Assembly (NCBI GenBank): GCA_026982355.1
Contig: JALSHG010000046.1
Span: 5,314 to 69,313, forward strand
Direction of reading: 5' to 3'
Source of the DNA: Thermodesulfovibrio sp.
GTDB lineage: Bacteria > Nitrospirota > Thermodesulfovibrionia > UBA6902
Length of the DNA stretch: 64,000 nt
Below are positions 48,998 through 49,057 of the stretch, piece by piece. Positions within the stretch are counted from its first letter, which is position 1, and every line of letters begins with the position of its first letter. The notes beneath the pieces are model-generated. The model was not told the origin of the DNA and did no database searches. It saw nothing but the letters and a program-made list of their open reading frames with translations. The position numbers and the translations under genes were made by a program.

Positions 48998-49057
48998 AGA
49001 GAGAGAGAGAGAGAGAGAGAGAGAGAGAGAGAGAGAGAGAGAGAGAGAGAGAGAGAG
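48998..49057. repeat. (AG)30 dinucleotide microsatellite
   Basis: Perfect 60-nt agagag... tract, read directly; 262 bp upstream of the che operon start (48736, minus strand); generates the artefactual MLSLSLSL ORF. Confidence 0.98.

Follow-up and report, generated by a model that had tools for sequence, protein, structure and literature searches.

A perfect (CT)30 tract abutting a predicted sigma-54 promoter upstream of a chemosensory operon in Thermodesulfovibrio sp.

Introduction

The best-studied long simple repeats of bacteria belong to host-adapted pathogens and serve there as switches for surface genes or restriction genes. In Haemophilus influenzae, a heptanucleotide repeat, (ATCTTTC)n, lies in the 5' UTR of hmw1A and hmw2A and its number grades expression, with the hmw1A repeats pairing with a G-rich segment to form a long hairpin that is cut by RNase III (PMC12721329). 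In Moraxella catarrhalis, a poly-G tract (uspA1) and an (AGAT)n repeat (uspA2) lie upstream of the ORF, and their length grades the level of mRNA (PMC7302503). Another arrangement is found in Helicobacter pylori, where CT repeats of the oipA/sabA type lie inside the 5' coding region and switch the gene by frameshifting (PMC10564699). Across prokaryotes, simple repeats of 1-3 nt are generally suppressed, less strongly so in intergenic DNA, where oligopurine tracts are normally represented and bear no sign of selection (PMC4060949).

Here, we analyse a perfect dinucleotide repeat of 30 units upstream of a chemosensory operon of Thermodesulfovibrio sp. (GenBank assembly GCA_026982355.1, contig JALSHG010000046.1, positions 5,314 to 69,313 of the forward strand). 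This whole stretch of 64,000 nucleotides is called the window below, and all coordinates are those of the window unless another contig is named. A sequence-only reading of the same DNA had pointed out the tract and suggested that it could act as a phase-variable spacer or UP element, or adopt H-DNA. What the present analysis adds is a predicted sigma-54 promoter whose end falls on the first repeat unit.

The locus shares with hmw1A/hmw2A an intergenic, pyrimidine-rich simple repeat in a 5' leader (transcription being predicted here) that acts, or would act, by a route other than ORF frameshifting. It differs from them in that the unit is 2 nt long rather than 7 nt, the promoter is of the sigma-54 type, the CU tract is predicted to be unpaired whereas the hmw1A repeats form a hairpin, and the repeat belongs to a free-living, uncultured bacterium and not to a pathogen adapted to a host. 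With uspA1/uspA2 it has in common a simple repeat shortly before the ORF or in the stretch from promoter to start codon, whereas those genes encode pathogen surface adhesins and carry 6-18 units, and the operon considered here is a cytoplasmic chemosensory one with 30. In uspA1/uspA2, length polymorphism has been shown and the effects on expression have been measured. The oipA/sabA type offers the same CT unit and the same mechanism of slippage, but the tract here is several times longer and an ORF through it is not credible. Contingency loci are recognised by a repeat within an ORF or between promoter elements, and the tract was found in neither position. As for sigma-54/NtrC-family systems, the locus has the same GG/GC spacing and its orthologous operons include some with an activator gene beside such a promoter, whereas neither an activator gene nor an activator-binding site was found in the window itself.

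Results

The tract

Read directly, the tract is an uninterrupted (AG)30 at 48998-49057, which is (CT)30 on the minus strand, the strand of the genes. Tandem Repeats Finder returned the same span (period 2, 30.0 copies, 100% matches, score 120). The sequence-only reading was thus correct on the tract itself and, with 30 perfect dinucleotide units, also on its slippage-prone length. Its base composition is 50% G+C. A regex scan for mono- to hexanucleotide repeats of at least 12 nt elsewhere in the 64 kb found none except a (CGC)4, and it is impossible that a 60-nt perfect dinucleotide run arose by chance in 64 kb. Since such repeats are generally suppressed in prokaryotes (PMC4060949), a 30-unit dinucleotide tract is unusual in an environmental bacterium.

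The tract is also a perfect 60-bp homopurine-homopyrimidine mirror repeat with all purines on one strand, and H-DNA calls for a mirror repeat of at least about 15-20 bp. At the level of sequence, the H-DNA capability suggested earlier is therefore a sound prediction. A single-strand DNA fold of the tract gave no competing structure, a result that is uninformative on triplexes.

Gene surroundings

The tract sits in a 783-bp gap between rplQ (encoding L17; 49520-49945, minus strand), which forms the upstream border, and the first che gene, whose ATG (48736, minus strand) is 261 nt away; its neighbouring genes are all on the minus strand. This first gene of the operon (46793-48736, minus strand) encodes an MCP of 647 aa with two MCPsignal stretches and no other Pfam domain. 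The remaining chemosensory cluster (36091-46749, minus strand) was assigned from Pfam domains as a 4xCheW+CZB protein, CheB, a HEAT-repeat protein, CheR, two CheY, CheA (with Hpt domains) and a second MCP. Gene coordinates and Pfam domains thus bear out the promoter/leader gap of 783 bp and the dual-domain MCP as first described. The same holds for the che cluster as such, but not for its count of ten genes: nine che-type genes are recognisable in 36091-48736 and a tenth is not clear. In having a HEAT-repeat protein, the che cluster may be likened to Che7 of Myxococcus xanthus, in which the HEAT protein Cpc7 binds CheY7, according to work cited in PMC11514114.

Upstream of the che leader lies the rpsM-rpsK-rpsD-rpoA-rplQ operon. 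An inverted repeat, confirmed by direct reading, marks its intrinsic terminator at 49448-49497 (minus strand): GC-rich arms (AGGCGTCCTGA/TCAGGACGCCT), then TTTTTG as read on that strand. This terminator isolates the che leader from ribosomal-operon transcription. Just past it, the gap, which is otherwise A/T-rich, has a G+C-rich island (about 52%) at 49290-49450 (minus strand). The island folds slightly better than its shuffles (z -2.04, equalled by 7 of 200 shuffles) and has no Rfam match. Rfam gave no match at gathering thresholds over the whole window, and at E<=1 nothing meaningful in 48600-49600, where the sole match scored 15.7 bits against a gathering score of 440 bits.

Farther off, a 2432-aa ORF (17367-24665, minus strand) adjoins a 213-aa PEP-CTERM protein (24730-25371, minus strand), and 25561-29088 encodes a 1175-aa AAA/TPR/BTAD regulator-like protein; all three are unconnected with the tract.

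A predicted sigma-54 promoter at the tract edge

On the side of the tract that is upstream for the che operon, and in the operon's orientation, lies TGGCATGACTTTTGCT (49071-49056, minus strand), which matches the sigma-54 motif as TGGCAT-N5-TTGCT. It agrees with the sigma-54 consensus at 11 of 12 bases, departs from the form TGGCAC-N5-TTGCW by one mismatch, and has GG and GC at canonical spacing, the former (-24) occupying 49070-49069 and the latter (-12) 49058-49057. The tract begins with the C of the -12 GC (49057), and the promoter match ends on the first CT unit. The exact pattern TGGCAY-N5-TTGCW occurs a single time on the two strands of the 64 kb taken together, where shuffles lead one to expect 0.17 per window and about 0.001 for the gap and strand concerned. 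Against the fuller pattern TGGCACG-N4-TTGCW, TGGCATGACTTTTGCT is again the best match in the window, with 1 mismatch; all other matches have 2 and either have no GG or GC or lie inside genes. We predict from this motif that TGGCATGACTTTTGCT serves as a sigma-54 promoter.

Sigma-54 promoters start transcription about 12 nt downstream of the -12 C. By this standard geometry, the start would fall at about 49045 (minus strand), in the seventh CT unit, the tract would span -12 to about +48 of the che promoter, and the leader would be about 309 nt long, opening with some 24 CU units (about 48 nt). The initiating base at this predicted start can only be C or T, and initiation with CTP or UTP is unfavourable for RNA polymerase. 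We know of no described sigma-54 promoter whose whole initial transcribed region is a dinucleotide repeat, as far as a search that was not exhaustive can tell.

A sigma-70 scan of 48600-49700 gave no site at the threshold of the tool. At a relaxed threshold (8/12), none was found between tract and ATG, and the only weak candidates (8/12) lie at 49129-49198, upstream of the tract; a sigma-28 scan of the gap gave no convincing site. Since all candidate sites are upstream of it, the tract is probably transcribed whichever promoter serves. No protein with GAFTGA or of the sigma-54 activator type is encoded in the 64-kb window, Pfam scans included, and no clear upstream activating sequence for the promoter was found there.

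The leader RNA and the ORF across the tract

The remainder of the 5' leader (48737-48997, minus strand; 261 nt) is pyrimidine-rich in its 5' part and holds the Shine-Dalgarno sequence AAGGAGGAGAAG (48750-48739, minus strand), with no promoter-like site and no credible ORF. The predicted fold of the leader as a whole is no better structured than that of shuffles (z -0.68), and neither the minimum-energy nor the centroid fold pairs the CU tract. The best duplex partner for the tract is AAGAAAGAGGGAGGAGG at 48656-48640, inside the MCP coding sequence (-19 kcal/mol, 12 units). The energy gained from this duplex levels off at 10 units, a longer tract leaves the fold energy unchanged, and the accessibility of the Shine-Dalgarno sequence is constant from 0 to 40 units. 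The long hairpin of the hmw1A type, in which the repeat pairs with a complementary purine-rich arm, did not appear in the leader folds.

A perfect inverted repeat of 10 nt (48968-48977 / 48725-48734) lets CUUUUUUUGCC, from the 5' portion of the leader, pair with the start-codon region AUGGCAAAAAAA, and this helix is part of the leader's centroid fold as well as of its minimum-energy fold. In the modelled folds the helix could mask the start codon, at a significance that is marginal for A/T-rich sequence.

Only one ORF crosses the tract, at 49060-48749, with a TTG start and 103 aa that include an (LS)n run. Its codon score is -0.08, compared with 0.33 +/- 0.12 for real genes (minimum 0.035), it has no Shine-Dalgarno sequence and no homologue in any related locus, and its TTG belongs to the -12 element. 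On the grounds of its non-coding codon score and lack of homologues we reject it as a gene, which upholds the earlier statement that the tract is not in a coding sequence.

The tract in other assemblies

Exact-protein look-ups brought up two more public assemblies of the same organism, ENA ERZ27262642 and Logan SRR7968108, and look-ups with five different window proteins yielded no further ones. Two contigs of ERZ27262642 have an end at the tract. Contig k141_9630 carries the ribosomal operon and terminates in GGCATGACTTTTG(CT)26; contig k141_531367 (L002) begins TTT(CT)30AAAAAGTATTC, continues into the MCP, and extends 3 nt past the tract into the flank on the rplQ side. In SRR7968108, the first base of contig 101948 is already within the tract. 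Both complete copies, those of the window and L002, have 30 units, the remaining contigs ending inside the tract.

Outside the tract, the three contigs are 99.96-100% identical to the window. The sole difference over more than 5 kb lies between Shine-Dalgarno sequence and start codon, at 48738, two bases ahead of the MCP's ATG; read on the gene strand, the window has an A there and the other two assemblies a G. At the other edge, the third base of L002 is T where the window has the G of the -12 GC, a position that is the extreme end of that contig. Because three assemblies show it on matching flanks, the tract is not an assembly artefact, and at least two populations carry it on identical flanks.

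The contig breaks were considered as a sign of length heterogeneity and this was rejected: a repeat of 60 nt inevitably interrupts assembly at k=31, and low coverage or library stutter can account for the MEGAHIT break. A literature search by accession found no paper for SRR7968108, ERZ27262642 or GCA_027049525, and an exact-flank scan of JGI metagenome contigs gave 0 matches.

A second repeat in the same lineage

Tandem Repeats Finder located a heptamer repeat 6 kb from the tract, at 55169-55208, in the rplO-secY spacer of the ribosomal spc operon (genes on the minus strand). It consists of about 5.7 copies of TGAATCT on the plus strand, or AAGATTC on the gene strand, and each of three related species has just one copy of the heptamer. 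Here the ENA assembly agrees fully with the window; in SRR7968108 the ATTCAAA and ATTCAGG units, present once each in the window, both occur twice. Since the make-up of the heptamer repeat differs between assemblies, slippage is active and repeats are dynamic in this lineage. The lineage thus expands and remodels simple repeats within a short time, and does so even in a housekeeping operon, where there would be little point in switching.

Orthologous loci and relatives

Protein-guided scans of genomes and metagenomes recovered about 30 orthologous loci, with MCP identities of 46-63% and source labels of MAGs of Syntrophobacteraceae, Desulfobacterales and others. None of the 15 scanned for repeats (L004-L018) has one upstream of the MCP; L019-L034 were examined for promoter sites and ORFs only. 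Given that the scanned loci have no repeat, the expansion is recent and lineage-specific.

Two layouts are found upstream of the orthologous che clusters. In the first, an activator gene, a sigma-54 site and an ORF of 141-146 aa precede the MCP (L004 949-3105, L012 1806-3906). L004, which is the closest orthologous operon (MCP 63% identical), encodes a 510-aa response regulator of the NtrC type, with a Sigma54_activat domain and GAFTGA, that ends 140 nt before the sigma-54 site TGGCACACGCTTTGCT; then come CTTGCTCTG, a 141-aa ORF and the MCP. L012 likewise has its activator gene directly upstream. The small ORF between promoter and MCP has no counterpart in the window. Window and L004 share TTGCTCT at and after the -12 element, and it is plausible from this similarity that the expansion was seeded there. 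In the second and commoner layout (e.g. L005-L008, L021), a truncated Hsp70-like gene of about 510 aa stands directly before the MCP. Most orthologous operons have no sigma-54 site within reach, and sigma-54 control is therefore not universal for this type of operon.

By ribosomal-operon DNA (about 91-92% identity), the nearest relatives are the MAGs GCA_013152795.1 ("Deferribacteres bacterium") and GCA_027049525.1. The contigs of GCA_027049525.1, the one relative at 83% identity, stop short of the leader on both sides. Its ribosomal contig (L036 9268-9354) stops 87 bp past rplQ, in CGCTGGCATGCTC, and its MCP contig (L035 1-350) begins about 75 nt into the gene and has an in-frame TAG at 241-243. 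The leader is therefore unassembled in this genome. The end of the ribosomal contig, CGCTGGCATGCTC, resembles a -24 element severed by the contig end.

Discussion

We propose that the tract is a genuine, lineage-specific, slippage-born repeat at the predicted sigma-54 promoter of the che operon, with an effect on expression that is graded or near-neutral. This is the most likely reading, and we put its probability at about 0.5. Replication slippage would have generated the tract, starting at the -12 GC of the predicted promoter. Sigma-54 polymerase would bind the intact -24/-12 elements upstream, melt the DNA within the repeat, start at about 49045, and so produce a leader whose first 48 nt or so of about 309 nt are a run of about 24 CU units. 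With everything from -12 to about +48 made of repeat, slippage by a few units would not alter the spacing of the promoter, how far its elements lie from anything upstream, or the sequence under the polymerase; the one thing to change would be how long the single-stranded CU leader is. The expected outcome would be a heritable change in operon output that is graded or near-neutral, rather than a binary ON/OFF switch. Possible routes to such an effect would be pyrimidine-only initiation and escape with two-base slippage, early elongation, the length or stability of the leader, and DNA structure.

In support of this proposal, the 64 kb contain just one sigma-54 consensus site, which adjoins the tract in the orientation of the operon, with no sigma-70-like site from tract to ATG and weak ones upstream. 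The closest orthologous operon, that of L004, has a sigma-54 activator and a matching promoter in a setting free of repeats, the heptamer expansion demonstrates slippage in the lineage, and the CU tract is predicted to be unpaired, such that units beyond 10 leave fold energy and Shine-Dalgarno accessibility unchanged. Several points count against it. The promoter is a motif match, with no activator gene in the window and no recognisable activator-binding site; most orthologous operons have no sigma-54 site; and a start within the tract would need CTP or UTP, which is unfavourable. Both whole copies, from two assemblies, have 30 units.

The main rival is that the tract is a neutral by-product of a repeat-prone lineage, tolerated at its site and, at whatever length it has been observed, of no real consequence for che expression. 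We regard this as possible, if on the unlikely side. It would explain why a second lineage-specific expansion is found 6 kb off in the spacer of a housekeeping operon, where switching is implausible, and it accords with orthologues that have no tract in that place, with the same length of 30 in both complete copies, and with predicted RNA folding that is indifferent to length beyond 10 units. A position downstream of the -12 element would in addition buffer the geometry of the promoter. On the other hand, the exact abutment on the -12 element is striking, it is unlikely that initiation is unaffected when 30 units stand in for the start site and all of the initial transcribed sequence, and suppression is the general rule for long mono- and dinucleotide repeats of prokaryotes (PMC4060949).

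That suppression can also be turned against our own proposal, as a 30-unit tract where repeats are suppressed (PMC4060949) could mean selection for mutability. In that case selection would have made the repeat a mutable dial for the sigma-54 promoter of a free-living anaerobe, which we consider unlikely. Pyrimidine initiation would take place on a (CT)n template that lets the nascent RNA slip by two bases, and the output of the Che7-like operon would be set by the supply of CTP/UTP, by reiterative transcription, or by heritable repeat length.

The proposal of the sequence-only reading was closer to a classical phase-variable element, in which the tract would part a regulator site or upstream element from a downstream promoter and turn the operon ON or OFF by its number of units. 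The tract is long enough for high rates of slippage and does lie upstream of the first che gene, and intergenic repeats that grade or switch transcription are known, e.g. in uspA1 and uspA2 (PMC7302503). Such a spacer would, however, need a promoter on the gene side of the tract, and between tract and ATG there is no promoter-like site even at relaxed thresholds; the one strong promoter motif directly adjoins the tract on its upstream side, and the tract thus lies neither between nor upstream of promoter elements. An UP element is a stretch of A/T-rich DNA ahead of -35; (AG)n does not have that composition, nor is there a sigma-70-like promoter downstream of it. Gain or loss of units leaves the geometry of the promoter intact, which argues against a switch of either the spacer or the UP-element kind and, if the sigma-54 model holds, rules out a spacer mechanism, and the equal length of both complete copies likewise speaks against it. 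We therefore judge both roles, as first suggested, to be quite improbable.

Slightly less credence still goes to an H-DNA element, in which an intramolecular triplex, favoured by negative supercoiling or low pH, would form where the sigma-54 polymerase melts the DNA, making output dependent on supercoiling or pH. The sequence is fully suited to it, since the mirror repeat is perfect and one strand carries every purine, and the tract overlaps the predicted melting region from -12 to +1. To our knowledge, however, there is only limited in vivo evidence for H-DNA formation in bacteria, which counts against this explanation, as does the normal representation of intergenic oligopurine tracts, with no sign of selection (PMC4060949).

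Finally, that the tract is a (Leu-Ser)n coding repeat in a frameshift-switched 103-aa ORF, or an assembly error at a join, is highly improbable: a TTG-start ORF does pass from 49060 through the tract to 48749 and short-read contigs do break at the tract, but this ORF has a codon score of -0.08, no homologue, no Shine-Dalgarno sequence and a TTG that is part of the -12 element, three assemblies have the tract on matching flanks (with L002 reaching 3 nt beyond it on the rplQ side), and any repeat of 60 nt should break an assembly made at k=31 (Logan).

What sets this locus apart is the combination of a 30-unit perfect repeat, an environmental uncultured bacterium, a chemosensory operon, and a position in the predicted melting and start region of a sigma-54 promoter. 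There is also a practical warning in that the tract breaks short-read assemblies at the locus. Should the tract be devoid of effect, it would be a clean example of a bacterial genome tolerating runaway slippage. Should its length vary and matter, repeat-based heritable tuning would reach free-living bacteria and sigma-54 promoters, and the locus would offer a natural template for initiation on a pyrimidine-only, repetitive start region. If the repeat were indeed a selected dial, this would be a contingency-type locus outside the host-adapted pathogens, and in a promoter class for which none has been described.
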